From positions 1 to 41,937 of the IMG/VR virus record IMGVR_UViG_3300031110_000003: DNA of 41,937 nucleotides; one strand, 5' to 3'. The position numbers and the translations under genes are program-made. The DNA is from a virus. This document shows, in pieces, positions 5,904 through 41,937 of the stretch (position 1 is its first letter; each line of letters starts with the position of its first letter). Under the pieces are notes generated by a model. That model saw nothing but the letters and a program-made list of their open reading frames with translations, had not been told where the DNA came from and made no database searches.

Positions 5904-5982
5904 AGGCGGCACTAAAGTATCGGTTGTAATTGCCTATATTGTGAGCAAGTATGTACCTTCCCTGACGGGGTTTTCGAATTTG

Positions 5983-6014
5983 CCCACTTAGCCAACCGGT
6001 TGAGTGGGTTTTTT
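5983..6014 (+). terminator. Second plus-strand terminator-like hairpin with a T6 run and no ORF upstream
   Basis: cccact (5983-5988) / agtggg (6003-6008) with a 14-nt loop, followed by tttttt (6009-6014). It abuts the stop codon of the minus-strand HTH gene. Confidence 0.45.
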
Positions 6015-6199
6015 CATTCTGGTAACCGCCAAGCAGGAAGGCCAAAGGCAAGAGCGGCACATGCCAAGCCGATATAGGCTGGAGCGCCCTCTGCCTTATA
6101 CTTAGCAACAGAGTTGCGTGATAGATCAAGCGTCCTTGCTGCTTCGCGCTCACTGAAGCCCATATGTTCGATCCAAGCACAAAAGTCTTTCGCTTCCAT
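6014..6199 (-). CDS. Small HTH DNA-binding regulator (61 aa)
   Basis: FCAWIEHMGFSEREAARTLDLSRNSVAKYKAEG is a helix-turn-helix pattern of the small Cro/YdaS-like type. It lies on the minus strand inside the accessory island. Confidence 0.65.
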   Translation of the reverse strand: MEAKDFCAWIEHMGFSEREAARTLDLSRNSVAKYKAEGAPAYIGLACAALAFGLPAWRLPE

Positions 6200-6255
6200 T
6201 GGATTTGCCCTATATTAAGGAAGGAACTGACCGCCTTAGCGGCCAGCCCCTTCAA

Positions 6256-6342
6256 TTACCTGCTGAGTTGGTCAATCATCATTGCAAGTGCGATGACCAG
6301 CTGGCAGGCTTGAAGGATAAGATTGAGCGTCTCGTAAGACAT
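6256..6342 (-). CDS. Micro-ORF: 28-aa peptide MSYETLNLILQACQLVIALAMMIDQLSR
   Basis: Hand translation. The ATG at 6342 has AAGGA 7 nt upstream. It sits 56 nt upstream of, and co-oriented with, the HTH gene. Moderately hydrophobic core. Confidence 0.4.
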   Translation of the reverse strand: MSYETLNLILQACQLVIALAMMIDQLSR

Positions 6343-6402
6343 TCTCTTTTCCTTCGGTACACTAGGAAAGAACCATTCTTTCCTCTCAGTGTGATTATAT
6401 TA

Positions 6403-6452
6403 TGGCTCATATTTGAGCCAAAGTCAACACATATTGGCATAAAATTGAGCCA
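6403..6452. promoter_or_regulatory. Operator-like inverted repeats in a divergent promoter region
   Basis: TGGCTCA-tatt-TGAGCCA is a perfect palindrome at 6403-6420. An imperfect copy TGGCAT-aaaat-TGAGCCA is at 6435-6452. TTGAGCCAAA is repeated exactly at 6413 and 6445 (32 bp apart). The region is AT-rich and lies between the minus-strand peptide/HTH unit and the plus-strand secreted-protein gene. Confidence 0.5.
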
Positions 6453-6527
6453 AATTATAATTATTTTGCAGCCGTTGGTCATTCCAGCGGCTTTTTTGTT
6501 TTCTGCAACCCAACAAGAGGTAAACAC

Positions 6528-6833
6528 ATGAAGCTGTTTCGAAGTCTGATCTTCGGCTGCGCTGCTATGCTCGCAGCTATCCTTTGCATGAGTGCGCCAG
6601 CATCGGCTGTTGATTACAGTCCGGGCGTGTATCAGATCCACTCAGTCAGTTATGATTATGTTGTGCCTGACGTTTTCAAAGCTGTCGCTGTTCTGCCAAC
6701 AGCCGTCGCGCTTCCAGATCGAAGTAGCAACGCCCATGCAGTTGCATACATTTGCCAGAACCAGCCCAACTCAGCATTCCGCCAGTCGGTCGAAGCCTAT
6801 TCGCATATCGACCCGCACATCAAAGCAGCCTGA
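6528..6833 (+). CDS. Small secreted protein with a Sec signal peptide (101 aa)
   Basis: MKLFRSLIFGCAAMLAAILCMSAPASA / VD is a classic signal peptide with an AXA site. AGAGG SD lies 7 nt upstream. Confidence 0.7.
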   Translation: MKLFRSLIFGCAAMLAAILCMSAPASAVDYSPGVYQIHSVSYDYVVPDVFKAVAVLPTAVALPDRSSNAHAVAYICQNQPNSAFRQSVEAYSHIDPHIKAA

Positions 6834-6998
6834 CATTGCTGGTTGTCACCCCGCCGTTCGTAACTGATCGGCGGCGGTGCTCATTTCCATCTTCTCAACG
6901 CGAGGGGATTGATATGAGCATCAAGATTTCATTTGGAGAGTTGAGGCAGGCGTTTAAGCGCCTACCCCTAATTCTAATCTGGAAATGTTTGCGTGAAG

Positions 6999-7139
6999 TT
7001 ATTTCTTCTGCTTCTCAGTATCTTTGATCTGAGTGGTGAAGCCGCCACCAACCTTGCTTGCCGACTTATCAGCCGCGGCTGACTTGTCCTTCTTAGGTTT
7101 GCGCACTTCACGATTACTGCGTACTTGGCCTTTTGCCAT
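6999..7139 (-). CDS. Small lysine-rich hydrophilic protein (46 aa) MAKGQVRSNREVRKPKKDKSAAADKSASKVGGGFTTQIKDTEKQKK
   Basis: Hand translation. It resembles the short MAKGQ..REx+KPKK proteins common in Rhizobiales, from memory and unverified. The SD is weak. It competes with a plus-strand 37-aa ORF at 6914..7027. Confidence 0.4.
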   Translation of the reverse strand: MAKGQVRSNREVRKPKKDKSAAADKSASKVGGGFTTQIKDTEKQKK

Positions 7140-7291
7140 GACGGAAACTTTCTTGCTTAAAGAGCGGAGTGTTCCAAACCTGCACAGATGTCCGTTCAGG
7201 TCATTTTGCTCTGGTTTAAGCCTATCACTAATGTCCCGCGCCTGTACGATAATTCAATGGACCGGATCGGCTATATGAGGATTGAGGAACG

Positions 7292-7381
7292 ATGACCGCC
7301 AAGCTTCTCGCTCTCTCTGCGTTTATAAAGAAATGGTTCAAGCCTAAGCCTTATTGGGCTGACGACAATGAACGGTGCTAA
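7292..7381 (+). CDS. Micro-ORF (29 aa) MTAKLLALSAFIKKWFKPKPYWADDNERC immediately upstream of terS
   Basis: GAGGA SD lies 3-5 nt upstream. The stop is 3 nt before the terS ATG. Confidence 0.35.
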   Translation: MTAKLLALSAFIKKWFKPKPYWADDNERC

Positions 7382-7384
7382 TTA

Positions 7385-7894
7385 ATGAGTGAGAATCGTG
7401 ACGAGAAAGGCCAGTTTCTAATAGGGCATTCGGAAGCAGGTCCGGGGCGTGACAGCCTCTATGATCCGTTGATGAATGACATGGTGAGAAAGCTCGCATT
7501 GCTGGGCCTCACAGATGAGGAAATGGCCAAGTTTTTCGGAGTGTCACAGCAAACGTTCTATAACTGGCAAAAAGAATTTCCCGCTTTTTTTGAGTCAGTC
7601 CAAGAAGGCAAGATTATTGCAGACGCTAACGTGGCTGACAGCCTCTATAAGCGCGCGACTGGCGAACACGTTGAGATTGAGAAGGCTTACCGGAATAAGA
7701 CAACAGGTGAAGTCGAACTCGTTAAGATCAAGCAATACATTCCCGGTGAAAGCGGCGCGGCTATGAACTGGTTGAAAAACCGCCGCAAGAATGATTGGCG
7801 CGACAAGCAAGAGCACGAGCTTACCGGCAAGGATGGCGGCGCAATCATCGTGAATACAGTCAAGCGGGTGGTTGTCGATCCAAAGGCGGATTGA
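7385..7894 (+). CDS. terS: Terminase small subunit (169 aa)
   Basis: HTH block LTDEEMAKFFGVSQQTFYNWQKEFPAFFESV and ...AAMNWLKNRRKNDWRDK are typical of small terminase proteins. It directly precedes terL. Confidence 0.8.
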   Translation: MSENRDEKGQFLIGHSEAGPGRDSLYDPLMNDMVRKLALLGLTDEEMAKFFGVSQQTFYNWQKEFPAFFESVQEGKIIADANVADSLYKRATGEHVEIEKAYRNKTTGEVELVKIKQYIPGESGAAMNWLKNRRKNDWRDKQEHELTGKDGGAIIVNTVKRVVVDPKAD

Positions 7895-32615: not shown

Positions 32616-32815
32616 TCTATGGCCTCCTTTGCGCGCAATATGGCGATGCGAACTTCTTGTGTGATGCCTAAGCGTGCCTGGTTATCCCGACCTGTGTAGA
32701 ACCGATTTACAAACCCAGCGCGGCGTAGCTTTCTGTCAGTGAAGTACCAAAAAATGCTGGGCACCTCTGCACCGGAGGCGATACGACACAGGCGCTTTAA
32801 ATCACGGGAGGTCAT
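32612..32815 (-). CDS. Hypothetical early protein (67 aa)
   Basis: An ORF in the coupled operon series. No domain recognised. Confidence 0.55.
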   Translation of the reverse strand: MTSRDLKRLCRIASGAEVPSIFWYFTDRKLRRAGFVNRFYTGRDNQARLGITQEVRIAILRAKEAIE

Positions 32816-32984
32816 TGGAAGACTCCGTTCTCTTATTCCAAGTTGCGATTAAGCGTTCCTCAGACTGATTAGGCACTGTAGCCACGTAGCAACCCTCACA
32901 AGTGATGTAAGGGTTATTGCCGCTGTGAGGGTGGACAAGCCGCGCAGATTTCCCGCAAAATGGACAGTTTTTTAGAGGCATCAT
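32802..32984 (-). CDS. Lar-family restriction-alleviation-like zinc-ribbon protein (60 aa)
   Basis: LKNCPFCGKSARLV...ITCEGCYVAT...ERLIATWNKR matches the Lar pattern CPFCG...C..C...AI..WN.R. Confidence 0.7.
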   Translation of the reverse strand: MMPLKNCPFCGKSARLVHPHSGNNPYITCEGCYVATVPNQSEERLIATWNKRTESSNDLP

Positions 32985-33340
32985 TTGCCGTCCTTACGCT
33001 TAAGGATATTCGCAATCCTGTTGTGAGTATCGAGAGCGGAAAAGACGCGATCATCGCGAGAGCAGCATTGTTCAGGCTTCACGAAACAGGAAATGATCGC
33101 GGCAGCATCCAATAGCGTGTCTTTCATTTCCTCGTATTCTCGACGGTCTTTGTGTCTTGCAACATTGATGGCTTCTGCAACGGCTTCCTGAGTGTCGAGA
33201 TCGATACCGATGTAATTGCAGAAGTTCACCCAATCATCGCTCATGCTGTCGGCGCGTTGCTTCTCGTCTTGATAAAGGCGCAGAAGCTCGGCTTCCCTAT
33301 CAGGCCCGTCTAGCTTGGATAGTCTGTCAATGAGGGTCAT
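32981..33340 (-). CDS. Hypothetical early protein (119 aa)
   Basis: ATGA-type overlaps at both ends. Helical and acidic. Confidence 0.6.
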   Translation of the reverse strand: MTLIDRLSKLDGPDREAELLRLYQDEKQRADSMSDDWVNFCNYIGIDLDTQEAVAEAINVARHKDRREYEEMKDTLLDAAAIISCFVKPEQCCSRDDRVFSALDTHNRIANILKRKDGK

Positions 33341-33840
33341 GGTTTGGCCTCCAAGGCGGCTCGGGCAATGCTGTTTGCCTGTGATTGTGGCGACGAGTAT
33401 TTAACTACTCGCTCCAATACCTTCCTTGTTTCTGAGAGTTGGGCTTCGGCTTTGTCTGTTCGTTCGACTAAACCAGCCGCTATTTCCTCCAGTGCGTGGT
33501 ATCGCGCCCGTTCCGCCGCAATGATGGCCTCGGCCTGCGAGCGCGTGACGACTGCAACTTGACCAGATGCACCTTCATTCTTGTAAAGACGGCTGATGCC
33601 CAATCCTTGGAAATCAAGTTGCCTGCCATATTCTGACGGAACATAACCCACGGTCTCCAACTCCTCGACCGGCGCGGCGGGGCGGGTGTTCCAGGCGGCG
33701 ATGGCTTGATCTTTGTTATTGCTGCCGTATGCTGATGATTTGCATTCAAAGCATTGCACCTGAAATACGCTCATAAATATTGTGCATTTTACTTTATCTA
33801 CACCGCCACAAAACGGGCAAGGCTTCAATTCATTCGCCAT
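33337..33840 (-). CDS. Second Lar-like zinc-ribbon protein with a C-terminal coiled-coil extension (167 aa)
   Basis: The N-terminus LKPCPFCGGVDKVKC...VQCFECKSSAYG...DQAIAAWNTR is followed by about 100 extra residues. Confidence 0.6.
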   Translation of the reverse strand: MANELKPCPFCGGVDKVKCTIFMSVFQVQCFECKSSAYGSNNKDQAIAAWNTRPAAPVEELETVGYVPSEYGRQLDFQGLGISRLYKNEGASGQVAVVTRSQAEAIIAAERARYHALEEIAAGLVERTDKAEAQLSETRKVLERVVKYSSPQSQANSIARAALEAKP

Positions 33841-39659: not shown

Positions 39660-39710
39660 AAACTATGAGAAACTCATACTTATGTCAAATAGAAATATGG
39701 AAAAGTCATA
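39660..39710 (-). promoter_or_regulatory. OL-like control region: operators TATGAGAAACTCATA (39664-39678, perfect palindrome) and TATGGAAAAGTCATA (39696-39710) flanking a leftward TTGACA -35 (complement of 39683-39688)
   Basis: It shares the 15-mer family with 150-164 and 176-190. On the minus strand TTGACA is followed after 16-17 nt by ATAGTT/TAGTTT. The first operator covers the -10. Confidence 0.6.
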
Positions 39711-39753
39711 ATAATTTTTGACCGCCGCTACAAACCGTGTAGAATCAGGGTGC

Positions 39754-39781
39754 AAAAAAGCCTCCCGGTGAGGGGAGGCTT
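39754..39781 (-). terminator. Rho-independent terminator of the DUF2806 transcription unit
   Basis: agcctccc (39759-39766) / gggaggct (39773-39780). On the minus strand it is followed by a T6 run (complement of 39754-39759, whose first base is also the last stem base). Confidence 0.7.
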
Positions 39782-39844
39782 CCTGCCTGTTAGATTATAT
39801 AAAAAATAGCTTTGATAATTGCGGCGATGGGGAGATAAAGGCGC

Positions 39845-40033
39845 ATGAGTGGCGGAACACTGAAATTGACTAGAGTTATTCAGCAGATAGCATATGAAAT
39901 AAAATTGTACTTAATGATAAGAAGACTTGAACGAATAACTCGTACTTTAGTTATGTTAAAAGCCACTGATGCGCTTTGTGTGGCGCACCAGCTGAACAAG
40001 ATTGTTAATAATTCTATCTTAGAAAAAGATTAG
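39845..40033 (+). CDS. Questionable small ORF (62 aa) convergent with the DUF2806 gene
   Basis: GGAGAT lies about 9 nt upstream. The region is AT-rich. The ORF lies inside what would otherwise be the 250-nt 3' UTR of the DUF2806 transcript. Confidence 0.25.
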   Translation: MSGGTLKLTRVIQQIAYEIKLYLMIRRLERITRTLVMLKATDALCVAHQLNKIVNNSILEKD

Positions 40034-40947
40034 GATTTTTGAATAATCTTAACCTCTCCGCCTAACTCTTTTATATACTCTGCAAATTCTGTAATAAAAT
40101 TGGCGTCGTAATGGCTCCCCAATATAGGGAGTAACTCACGACCGACGCGCGTTAAAATAGATACGCCTAACCTAATTTGATTTTTTGATGTCACCTCAAA
40201 ATATAAATTATTATAATCAAAATATTCTTTAACGCCTTCATTGTTAGGGTCCCGCGATACGCCCTTGCTTCTGCCGGTTGTCAAAAATCCTATATGTTCC
40301 AAATCCAGTAGGTCAACATAGTTGGGGCCAGAGCTTATCGACTTTACGTCTGGAACATACATTCCATCTATCGTTCGGCACAACGTCGATTTAATTATAT
40401 CACTAGTGCGCTTATCCAAGACGGACATCAATTGCAGTGAAGATAGCGAGAACGCGCCGGGCTTTCTTATTTCATCAGCTAGAATTGATGCCCAATGGTC
40501 TCTCATTCTTTCAGTAGACGCTTTTCCTGCGTACTCAGAAAAAGTATTCAGCCAATCATCGTCAACTTGGGGGTGGTCTTCCGGTATGCTGTCATTGGCT
40601 AATTTTTCCGTTGTCTTTTCAGCGACACTTTCTCTGTTTTGTTGACTTCGTAATGCTGAAATAACAGTGTATTCTTTTGTTCTCTGTATCAAATCTGGGT
40701 CTTGCAATCCTTCCGATATAGCTTTTTCGGTATACGCCTCTAAAGATGCTTCTCTAGCTTTAGTTGTGGCGCGGATACTAGAGGATACCTGTTCTCCTTT
40801 TGCTTGCAGTGTATCGATCCACGCTGCTCCAGCATCTCCAGCACCTTTCACTATTCTTGAAATGCTGCGCACAGCCCCCGGTATCTTTAACCAGTCATAA
40901 TTCGCTACTGTTGCCCAAAAGCCCTTTTGCGGCTCCAGTTCGGTCAT
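40030..40947 (-). CDS. DUF2806-family protein (305 aa), immunity-region moron
   Basis: The central block VDDDWLNTFSEYAGKASTERMRDHWASILADEIRKPGAFSLSSLQLMSVLDKRTSDII matches the conserved DUF2806 core as I recall it (DW...F......S.E.M...WA.ILA.E...PG.FS...L..L). The segment is visibly AT-rich. Confidence 0.65.
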   Translation of the reverse strand: MTELEPQKGFWATVANYDWLKIPGAVRSISRIVKGAGDAGAAWIDTLQAKGEQVSSSIRATTKAREASLEAYTEKAISEGLQDPDLIQRTKEYTVISALRSQQNRESVAEKTTEKLANDSIPEDHPQVDDDWLNTFSEYAGKASTERMRDHWASILADEIRKPGAFSLSSLQLMSVLDKRTSDIIKSTLCRTIDGMYVPDVKSISSGPNYVDLLDLEHIGFLTTGRSKGVSRDPNNEGVKEYFDYNNLYFEVTSKNQIRLGVSILTRVGRELLPILGSHYDANFITEFAEYIKELGGEVKIIQKS

Positions 40948-41057
40948 TGTTCCGTCCCCTTATTCAGCTTCTCAAGTTCTCGCGACGTTAGTGCGCATTC
41001 CAGATCATATGCAGATTCGCTTATCCACAGCCACAATTTGCGTGTGCTTCCTCGCAT
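40944..41057 (-). CDS. Micro-ORF (37 aa) MRGSTRKLWLWISESAYDLECALTSRELEKLNKGTEQ, coupled to the DUF2806 gene
   Basis: Hand translation. Its TGA overlaps the DUF2806 ATG (ATGA at 40947-40944). The SD is weak. Confidence 0.3.
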   Translation of the reverse strand: MRGSTRKLWLWISESAYDLECALTSRELEKLNKGTEQ

Positions 41058-41172
41058 TACTCTACATTTAGTTGTCCTAATCTGGTGGTGAATTTTTTCC
41101 TAATATGTTCTTGAAATGTTCTCATTCCTGAGTCATCCTGCCGCACAAACAAGCGTACAGGGAGTATGGGTA

Positions 41173-41430
41173 ATGGGCATGGAAACAAACTACATCGTGC
41201 AGAGCTACAGCAAGGGTTATCGGGGCAAGCTGGTTGCCGATACGCCTTTCATTGCAAAAGATGTGGCGCATGCAAAGCGCACGGCGGAACGCATGGCAAA
41301 TAGCAGTCCTATGGTAATTGCATTCACGAATACCGGCGATGCCGAAACAGGTGATTTCGAGCCGCCTAAGCTTATCTTCGCTCATGGCGATCAATTGCCG
41401 CCAGAAGTCGATGAGATGGAAAAGGTCTAA
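41173..41430 (+). CDS. Hypothetical protein (85 aa), divergent from the DUF2806 unit
   Basis: GGGAG lies 8 nt upstream. Sequence is MGMETNYIVQSYSKGYRGKLVADTPFIAKDVAHAKRTAERMANSSPMVIAF... Confidence 0.55.
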   Translation: MGMETNYIVQSYSKGYRGKLVADTPFIAKDVAHAKRTAERMANSSPMVIAFTNTGDAETGDFEPPKLIFAHGDQLPPEVDEMEKV

Positions 41431-41445: not shown

Positions 41446-41697
41446 ATGATCAGGTATAAGCCGCGCAAGAAATCCAAGAGGGATGAAACCCTTACGGAGT
41501 TGCGGGGAATTGCTGGCGGCTTATCTCTGCTGGAGATGCGCAGAATCATTGAACGCGATGCTACTCTGAAGATGATTTTGCTTTTACCTGAGCCTGTTCT
41601 TGACGAGGCTCTTCTGGTTGGTAAGGCGCTGCAAGCTTGCGCAAAACATCGGCATAGCTCTCCTGAAGATCTGGAGGAAGGCTATCATAAGCCATAA
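41446..41697 (+). CDS. Questionable ORF (83 aa) whose 3' part is antisense to the repressor gene
   Basis: GGGGG SD lies 6 nt upstream and the first ~40 aa look protein-like. It overlaps 41561..41935 by 137 nt. Confidence 0.3.
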   Translation: MIRYKPRKKSKRDETLTELRGIAGGLSLLEMRRIIERDATLKMILLLPEPVLDEALLVGKALQACAKHRHSSPEDLEEGYHKP

Positions 41698-41935
41698 GTA
41701 TCTCACGATACTTCGACGCGAGATCGACCATTGGGCCGGTCCCGCGCATCAGCCATTCAAAGCGCACTTTGAACCGCTTGGCATACATCTCGCCTTTGTC
41801 CGCACGGAAGCCAGAGCTTCCATTCTCATGCCCTGCATAAGTTGGATAAGGCACGCCCAGAGCCTCGGCGGCATCTGACGCTTTTTCAAAACCAGCCTGC
41901 TTGCGAGCGGCTGCTAATCTTTCATGAAGTTCCAT
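41561..41935 (-). CDS. CI-like XRE-family HTH repressor without a recognisable S24 peptidase domain (124 aa)
   Basis: LHERLAAARKQAGFEKASDAAEALGVPYPTYAGHENG is the HTH. It is divergent from the cro-like gene once the circle is closed (ATG = base 125 of the repeat). Confidence 0.8.
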   Translation of the reverse strand: MELHERLAAARKQAGFEKASDAAEALGVPYPTYAGHENGSSGFRADKGEMYAKRFKVRFEWLMRGTGPMVDLASKYREILMAYDSLPPDLQESYADVLRKLAAPYQPEEPRQEQAQVKAKSSSE

Positions 41936-41937
41936 GA
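41811..41937. repeat. Terminal direct repeat, copy 2 (identical to 1..127)
   Basis: Base-for-base identity with 1-127. Confidence 0.9.

Follow-up and report, generated by a model that had tools for sequence, protein, structure and literature searches.

Introduction

The closest described counterparts of the locus considered here are Belisama and Abi-alpha, which resemble it in the protein they encode, and BstA, which resembles it in genomic position. Belisama is an integron cassette of V. cholerae N16961 in which DUF2806 is the only recognisable domain; it confers anti-phage protection, cultures lysing at high multiplicity of infection with no amplification of the phage, and its full induction is toxic (Darracq et al., bioRxiv 10.1101/2024.07.02.601686). 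Abi-alpha (ef2833), encoded by prophage 6 of E. faecalis V583, has its own promoter, from which lysogens express it; infection is aborted by lysis that comes about 10 min early, and the protein is reported by its authors to be similar to the DUF2806 family, PF10987 (PMC6356687). BstA, an abortive-infection protein of the Salmonella prophage BTP1, is encoded downstream of the repressor in a terminator-ended unit, and the same study describes the cI-N interval of lambdoid phages, which holds rexAB in lambda, as a mosaic hotspot (PMC8585504). Here we analyse a two-gene cassette in the window, that is, the whole stretch of 41,937 nucleotides (nt) constituting positions 1 to 41,937 of the IMG/VR virus record IMGVR_UViG_3300031110_000003. 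It comprises a gene for a DUF2806-family protein of 305 amino acids (aa) and a convergent 62-aa gene, and it lies between the repressor gene and the leftward operator and promoter (OL and PL). Our favoured reading, which we hold to be fairly probable, is that the cassette is abortive-infection defence cargo of the prophage, of the Belisama/Abi-alpha type.

In phage lambda, rexA-rexB form lysogen-expressed exclusion cargo between cI and OL/PL, with a terminator before PL. Type I toxin-antitoxin pairs, such as txpA/RatA and bsrG/SR4 of B. subtilis, which reside in prophage-like elements, overlap convergently at their 3' ends, their toxins being small membrane peptides and their antitoxins non-coding. 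The original prediction for the window, made from the letters of the DNA, compared the position of the unit with those of lambda rexAB and P22 sieB; to our knowledge, sieB does not lie in the repressor-OL slot. It further took the unit to be undescribed and its family to have no established function, a statement contradicted by Belisama, a tested DUF2806 defence gene, and by Abi-alpha, a reported relative. Its central proposal, that the unit is a strong anti-phage candidate, is upheld by the hotspot position, by the BstA and PDC-M41 genes that sibling prophages carry in the same place, and by the tested or reported defence members of the family. The coordinates of all features discussed below are collected in Table 1.

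The DUF2806 protein and its family

The 305-aa protein matches the Pfam model of DUF2806 (PF10987) at E=1.1e-21 with 78.1 bits, the gathering cutoff being 24.5, and TIGR03899 of NCBIfam matches the same stretch with the first half of its model at a score under its cutoff. A word-indexed search with the single protein returned 2 relatives and a three-sequence profile returned 66, all of which (66/66) match PF10987. In an exhaustive profile search over clusters formed at 50% identity, 7556 cluster representatives reached E<=1e-3, and the stricter threshold of E<=1e-30 retained 507. The majority measure 300-345 aa and align over their full length, so that the complete architecture, with the C-terminal domain beyond the Pfam match, is a common one. 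In the AlphaFold2 model (predicted local distance difference test score, pLDDT, 87.4; predicted template-modelling score, pTM, 0.82), a helical half that extends to about residue 190 is predicted to be followed by an alpha/beta domain at about residues 197-303, which is unrecognised by Pfam yet shared with hundreds of representatives. The sole match of this model in a Foldseek search of BFVD is a 229-aa viral protein of no known function, and a profile search of PDB sequences gave nothing below E=0.7. With a maximum 19-residue hydropathy of 1.05, no transmembrane segment and an acidic isoelectric point (pI) of 5.2, the protein is predicted to be soluble, at 34 kDa.

A cargo hotspot between the repressor gene and OL

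The window is contained, in the opposite orientation, in a 50.8-kb metagenome contig (L003), which we compared with a sibling set of ten IMG/VR prophages whose repressors are 73-97% identical. Homology between L003 and four of the siblings (L114-L117) stops sharply at window position 41105 and resumes at 39825 in L114 and at 39748-39722 in L115-L117, and these breakpoints delimit the cargo segment of Table 1. The claim that the segment is AT-rich holds: its guanine-plus-cytosine (GC) fraction is 0.418 as compared with a window mean of 0.517, and no other non-overlapping stretch of 1279 bp is as low (minimum 0.466, z=-5.3). Across the ten siblings, between 616 and 3189 nt separate the start of the repressor gene from OL, and because siblings of the same immunity carry differing cargo or none in this slot, sequence comparison identifies the interval as a cargo hotspot. 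Two attributes of the rexAB/BstA positional class are present here, namely location between the repressor gene and OL/PL and variability among phages of one immunity specificity, and the proposal of horizontally acquired cargo in a slot equivalent to that of lambda rexAB is likewise supported by the differing cargo of the siblings, three of which have none.

Two further observations concern the edge of the cargo. About 45 nt of conserved sequence, TCTTGACGAAAGGTAAACGGCATTTTGCCGCCGCTAGATGTTGTG, stand ahead of the four different cargos of L114-L117, just past the breakpoint (for example, at L116 5860-5905), and could be a shared promoter, a regulatory site or a recombination site; the window retains only a degenerate end of it, CTAAATGTAGAG, at about 41060-41071. 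An imperfect 23-nt direct repeat, AACATTTCAAGAACATATTAGGA / AAAAATTCACCACCAGATTAGGA, of 74% identity spans the cargo boundary at window 41075-41120 (L003 9828-9873).

Genomic setting of DUF2806 homologues

By their positions, the homologues are variable cargo rather than core phage genes; the original prediction had stated that core-gene status in related phages would speak against it. The closest homologues (L007, L067, L131-L134) belong to a different prophage lineage and follow cI-S24 on the same strand. In the prophage of a different lineage in L007, which carries the homologue P0004, the order is cro, a cI-S24 repressor gene, three small genes and DUF2806, followed by an exonuclease-RecT-integrase operon, and in several other loci the gene adjoins, closely follows or lies near an S24 repressor gene (Table 1). 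Five P2-like prophages carry it in the interval between gpA and the portal gene, a published defence hotspot of P2. In L061 the nuclease-like gene and the DUF2806 cassette appear, from their arrangement, to form a small defence cluster. Of about 50 loci, nearly all have a DUF2806 gene that is AT-richer than the locus itself.

Non-coding sequence (…GGTGAGGTAAGGGTTCGAGCTAAAGACCCCCCTACCCCC…) is also conserved in the Brucellaceae prophage lineage, where it separates the cassette from the early-left operon, at about 9230-9650 in L007, 2390-2740 in L061 and 6130-6330 in L067. The copy in L067 has no Rfam match; in L003 and L067 together, Rfam recognises only a tRNA, located where the L067 prophage ends.

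The convergent 62-aa gene

The original prediction had noticed a 62-codon plus-strand open reading frame (ORF) convergent with the DUF2806 gene and had described about 250 nt of AT-rich 3' sequence downstream of the latter. The ORF exists and proves to be conserved; the stretch is indeed AT-rich, but it is itself this conserved small gene. It was called as a gene by the depositors, and it has a ribosome-binding site (GGGGAG, 8-13 nt upstream of the ATG). It is kept in both of the other prophage lineages in which the closest relatives occur: its counterparts in L007/L008, L061 and L067 are equivalent in position, and each shares 4-12 nt with the DUF2806 gene across the stop codon of the latter. 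Amino-acid identity of these counterparts to the window copy is about 30%, with the frame kept open despite the AT-rich DNA, and between L007 and L061 the proportions of nonsynonymous and synonymous differences are pN 0.19 versus pS 0.44 (dN/dS about 0.3). A profile built from three small ORFs and run against 25,248 six-frame segments recovers a single one, the L067 copy, at E=1.9e-7. Among 5.8 billion proteins, the 62-aa protein is represented by three clusters only, all of them accompanying a DUF2806 cassette, and a search of IMG/VR for it found none; the Pseudochrobactrum version (P0202) is convergent and overlapping with DUF2806 in 6/6 places listed. No 62-aa ORF was found beside more distant DUF2806 genes. 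The predicted protein is basic (pI 9.9), with a maximum 19-residue hydropathy of 0.85.

The promoter-like site that abuts OL stands in the same register in L115 (9/12), L116 (11/12) and L117 (10/12), and we regard it as a putative promoter of the immunity-region backbone. An adjacent, co-conserved small partner, as expected of toxin-antitoxin systems, is present beside the DUF2806 gene, and the 62-aa gene is a candidate regulator, antidote or antisense partner of DUF2806. As a conserved convergent partner gene, it is a new element of the DUF2806 locus, not described before.

Terminator, leader and rejected features

The strong terminator that the original prediction assigned to the unit is real as a hairpin with a U-tract, but it belongs to the backbone shared with L114. 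None of 200 shuffles folds as well as the hairpin, which a simple consensus scan missed. The hairpin of L114 at the same place differs in its stem, and L115, L119 and L122 have hairpins of their own. These parallels suggest an immunity-region backbone element analogous to lambda tIMM. In the DUF2806 loci of L007 and L061 a hairpin with a T-run likewise stands just beyond the small ORF. As the terminator lies beyond the small ORF, the predicted DUF2806 mRNA is antisense to all of it.

Three features on the 5' side of the DUF2806 gene were rejected. The 37-codon ORF that had been proposed as a coupled gene does exist, with an ATGA overlap, but is unsupported as a gene: it lacks a Shine-Dalgarno sequence, the depositor's gene caller passed it over, none of L007, L061 and L067 has an equivalent, and the window contains 246 ATG-initiated ORFs of >=37 codons. 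The DnaA box reported at 41021-41029 is indeed a perfect copy, but the only one, and copies with at most one mismatch occur at chance level (8 as compared with 6.2 expected), so we do not regard it as functional. A minus-strand promoter-like site at 40975-40946 was ruled out for the DUF2806 ORF, whose start codon it overlaps.

Proposed mechanism and alternative explanations

A two-gene mobile cassette (39826-41104) occupies the interval between the repressor gene and OL/PL. We infer that the lysogen would contain the DUF2806 protein and that an unrelated superinfecting phage would activate it, whereupon the infected cell would lyse early or die, with no progeny released; by analogy, the BstA that a sibling carries in the same slot would have to be expressed in the lysogen to work, and lysogenic expression would also fit L067, where the gene begins 17 nt past the cI stop on the same strand. 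The backbone terminator would halt the leftward DUF2806 transcript before PL, giving an mRNA with a 3' tail of about 250 nt that would be fully antisense to the 62-aa gene, and toxicity may be limited, or self-immunity given on induction, by the small basic protein, by its mRNA in the role of an antisense RNA, or by both. A more specific version of this scheme, which we put forward as a possibility only and hold with some doubt, is that DUF2806 and the 62-aa gene constitute an undescribed two-component form of the Belisama/Abi-alpha family: the backbone promoter abutting OL would drive the small gene, the basic protein and/or an antisense RNA of about 190 nt to the DUF2806 3' tail would restrain the killer in the lysogen, and the small gene could also give cognate self-immunity on induction, much as aba does for BstA but with a different device.

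Several observations weigh against the proposal of abortive-infection cargo. The family assignment made from the letters is secure in score, but the alignment to PF10987 pairs residues 88-187 with positions 1-97 of 221, leaving half of the model unmatched. The Abi_alpha model (PF14337) gives no match at E<=1 to the window protein and matches 3/66 relatives weakly, at best E=0.0034, the relationship to Abi-alpha being drawn from published HHpred-type statements. Neither the DUF2806 protein nor the 62-aa protein has a match at E<=0.1 in PADLOC v2.0.0 (2023) or any match in PHROGs, and by Foldseek the predicted structure has no usable counterpart in PDB (best E 0.63). At two nearly invariant positions the window protein departs from its relatives, with D for the G of 63/66 at residue 158, in the LAGEIRKPG motif, and S for the A of 62/66 at residue 182, and these substitutions (G158D and A182S) could mean altered or lost activity. 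The small ORF is confined to one Brucellaceae subclade, so it is not essential to the family. A consensus scan upstream of the DUF2806 gene found no promoter, including at 41060-41110, where one had been suspected on the minus strand, and the opposite-strand 85-aa gene separates the DUF2806 gene from cI. The transcriptional autonomy that had been supposed for the unit is not borne out, the promoter scan being negative and the relatives L067 and L007 carrying the gene on the same strand downstream of cI.

The features that suggest restraint of the DUF2806 protein by its small neighbour would also fit a toxin-antitoxin-like addiction module, in which DUF2806 is the toxin, the small gene supplies the antidote as protein or antisense RNA, and stabilisation of the prophage is the main effect. 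Belisama is toxic when over-expressed, the pair is conserved with overlapping 3' ends and acidic and basic partners, and a sibling has in the same slot a Gp49/HTH_37 pair that we read as toxin-antitoxin-like; most DUF2806 genes, however, and apparently Belisama and Abi-alpha too, do without such a partner. We consider such a module unlikely as an alternative, and since toxin-antitoxin and abortive-infection roles are compatible, it is partly a sub-case of the defence reading. That the copy in the window is decaying or inactive and kept by hitch-hiking might be argued from G158D and A182S and from the absence of a recognisable promoter in the scan, but the 305-codon frame is intact in AT-rich DNA and has a good ribosome-binding site (AAGGGGA, 8-9 nt upstream of the ATG), most of the remaining nearly invariant core residues are kept, the structural model is confident, and an identical copy of the DUF2806 gene occurs in a second, independent sample, so that we find this explanation improbable.

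To the same low degree we credit a role in the phage's own cycle, with DUF2806 as an optional regulatory accessory acting in lysis timing, the lysis-lysogeny decision or anti-repression. The gene lies in the regulatory region, the phenotypes of Abi-alpha and Belisama concern lysis timing, and the helical core of the model may, by eye, resemble helix-turn-helix-like segments; against this stand the three siblings of the same immunity system that carry no cargo, the homologues at unrelated sites (tail gene clusters, prophage ends and the P2 old/tin interval) and the foreign base composition. Envelope-level superinfection exclusion (Sie) that blocks DNA entry seems very improbable: prophage genes near the repressor often encode Sie proteins, as has been discussed for E. 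faecalis prophage 6, but neither protein of the cassette has a hydrophobic segment (maximum hydropathy 1.05 and 0.85), and the characterised relatives kill or lyse infected cells.

Other features of the immunity region and the phage

The immunity region extends, as judged from its genes and operators, from about 39664 to 42000. The repressor matches a transcriptional-repressor PHROG at E=3.8e-10 and, weakly, the Pfam domain HTH_3; in L003 a divergent HTH_3 cro-like gene lies beyond it, and the leftward operon contains single-stranded DNA-binding protein (SSB) and Lar-like genes and ends at the integrase. The OL-like operators of the original prediction are genuine, their palindrome being shared by OL and the rightward operator (OR): TATG-N7-CATA has 4 matches in L003 as compared with 0.16 expected, 2 of them at OL and one between the repressor and cro genes, at OR, just beyond the window edge. 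A further OR operator copy, AATGAGTTTCTCATA, lies 26 nt from the first, and the operators at OR and OL are kept in the 10 sibling prophages. The minus-strand hexamers TTGACA (39688-39683) and TAGTTT (39665-39660), read by eye and with an operator within their spacer, are the putative PL.

The 85-aa gene, overlooked in the original prediction, lies between the DUF2806 unit and the repressor gene, convergent with the latter and divergent from the cargo. It is missing from the empty-slot siblings L118, L121 and L123, and Pfam, PHROG and PADLOC gave no assignment for it. Because it falls inside the homology block shared with siblings, we regard it as semi-conserved backbone and not as cargo. An 83-aa ORF at 41446-41697 (+), not called by the depositors, overlaps the 3' end of the repressor gene in antisense by 137 nt, and its first 40 residues match phrog_32610 weakly (E=1.3e-4). 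The early-left operon holds two Lar_restr_allev (restriction alleviation) genes, at 33337-33840 (-) and 32802-32984 (-), marked by Pfam on L003, and a gene with a GapR DNA-binding domain (L003 8432-8692) adjoins cro in the early-right operon, outside the window. The immunity region had no Megablast match among 50,697 phage records, and the structural half of the window has only matches of about 72%, to Rhizobium phage head genes. The phage is a temperate phage of the Rhizobiales type and, on these comparisons, does not appear to be a described one.

Table 1. Features of the window, cargo of the sibling prophages in the slot between repressor gene and OL, and positions of DUF2806 homologues in other loci
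Feature or locus	Position	Strand	Description
DUF2806-family gene	40030..40947	-	305 aa; Pfam PF10987; presumed abortive-infection effector/sensor
Convergent small gene	39845..40033	+	62 aa, basic; 4-nt overlap with DUF2806 stop codon
Variable cargo segment	39826..41104		1279 bp; homology breakpoints versus L114-L117; lowest GC
Intrinsic terminator	39754..39781	-	free energy (dG) -23.2 kcal/mol, z=-3.9; U-tract follows
Promoter-like site TTGACC-N16-TAGAAT	39718..39745	+	10/12 matches; abuts OL, aimed at small ORF
OL, two operator palindromes TATGRR-N3-YYCATA	39664-39678 and 39696-39710		identical palindrome at OR
85-aa gene	41175..41430	+	no known function; homologues at same place in L114-L117, L120
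Repressor gene	41561..41937	-	132 aa in full contig; window misses first 8 codons
37-codon ORF in DUF2806 5' leader	40944..41057	-	unsupported as gene
Slot of L114	6009-6686	+	DUF3800 and 123-aa protein
Slot of L115			BstA (PADLOC E=2e-126) and 82-aa ORF
Slot of L116			Gp49 and HTH_37 pair; DUF7946/DUF7947 protein, 6918-7757 (-)
Slot of L117	about 5980-7203	+	AAA_16 ATPase and 189-aa helix-turn-helix (HTH) protein
Slot of L118, L121, L123			empty, about 250 nt
Slot of L119	5909-6442	+	177-aa hydrophobic protein
Slot of L120			PDC-M41A/B (DUF5131 protein and partner), candidate defence system
L007, Brucellaceae metagenome-assembled genome			homologue P0004, 44% identity; different prophage lineage, slot of same kind
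L067 and Pseudochrobactrum prophage L131-L134			DUF2806 start 17 nt past cI-S24 stop, same strand
L061			Mrr_cat / NA-iREase1 nuclease-like gene (3-1010, +) directly upstream of DUF2806 cassette
L030, L036			DUF2806 adjoins S24 repressor
L034			S24 repressor within about 1 kb of DUF2806
L035, L037-L040 (five P2-like prophages)			DUF2806 between gpA and portal gene, old/tin hotspot
Other relatives			among tail genes, after a primase, or at prophage end

Significance

The DUF2806 family is large (7556 cluster representatives), and one member, Belisama, has a tested anti-phage function, with neither a structure nor a mechanism described. The locus offers a well-delimited natural setting in which to study the family: a 1.3-kb cassette in a defined hotspot, allelic to BstA, with empty-slot siblings that could serve as controls. 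If the small partner controls or neutralises DUF2806, it would give a handle on the restraint of the family and on prophage self-protection and would be a ready reagent for finding the trigger; if the cassette is inert, it is merely one more accessory gene without a known role. By position, the other occupants of the slot are also defence candidates, namely the DUF7946/DUF7947 protein, DUF3800 with its 123-aa companion, the AAA_16 ATPase with the 189-aa HTH protein, and the 177-aa hydrophobic protein, and the repressor-OL hotspot of this Rhizobiales phage group is a cheap source of more.

Comparison with known systems

With Belisama the window gene shares the DUF2806 domain and the character of a small, soluble, mobile accessory gene, and by this likeness abortive-infection-like lysis and toxicity may be expected of the window protein; the comparison is based on the shared domain, the Pfam model of which is matched by the window protein over its first half only, whereas the authors of Belisama use BLASTP-level similarity to the N16961 reference protein as their criterion. 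Belisama consists of one gene in an integron, whereas the window gene belongs to the cargo of a prophage immunity region and has a convergent partner, which is conserved in the subclade of the window gene and does not accompany more distant DUF2806 genes. Abi-alpha is, like the window protein, a prophage-encoded single protein of about 270-300 aa, but it belongs to another Pfam family (Abi_alpha/DUF4393), comes from a Gram-positive host and has no described partner gene.

BstA occupies the same genomic niche as the cassette, and the sibling L115 carries BstA in the very same slot, although BstA has no sequence relationship to the proteins of the window; its self-immunity is provided by a DNA element (aba) inside the gene, whereas the candidate device here is a small ORF. 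The rexAB proteins of lambda are also unrelated, and RexB is a membrane protein, which neither window protein is predicted to be; rexAB directly follows cI, whereas the window cassette is separated from its repressor gene by an opposite-strand gene. Like the type I toxin-antitoxin pairs, the window pair is convergent and its predicted RNAs are complementary at their 3' ends, but its large gene encodes a protein predicted to be soluble and of 34 kDa, and its small partner is conserved at the protein level.

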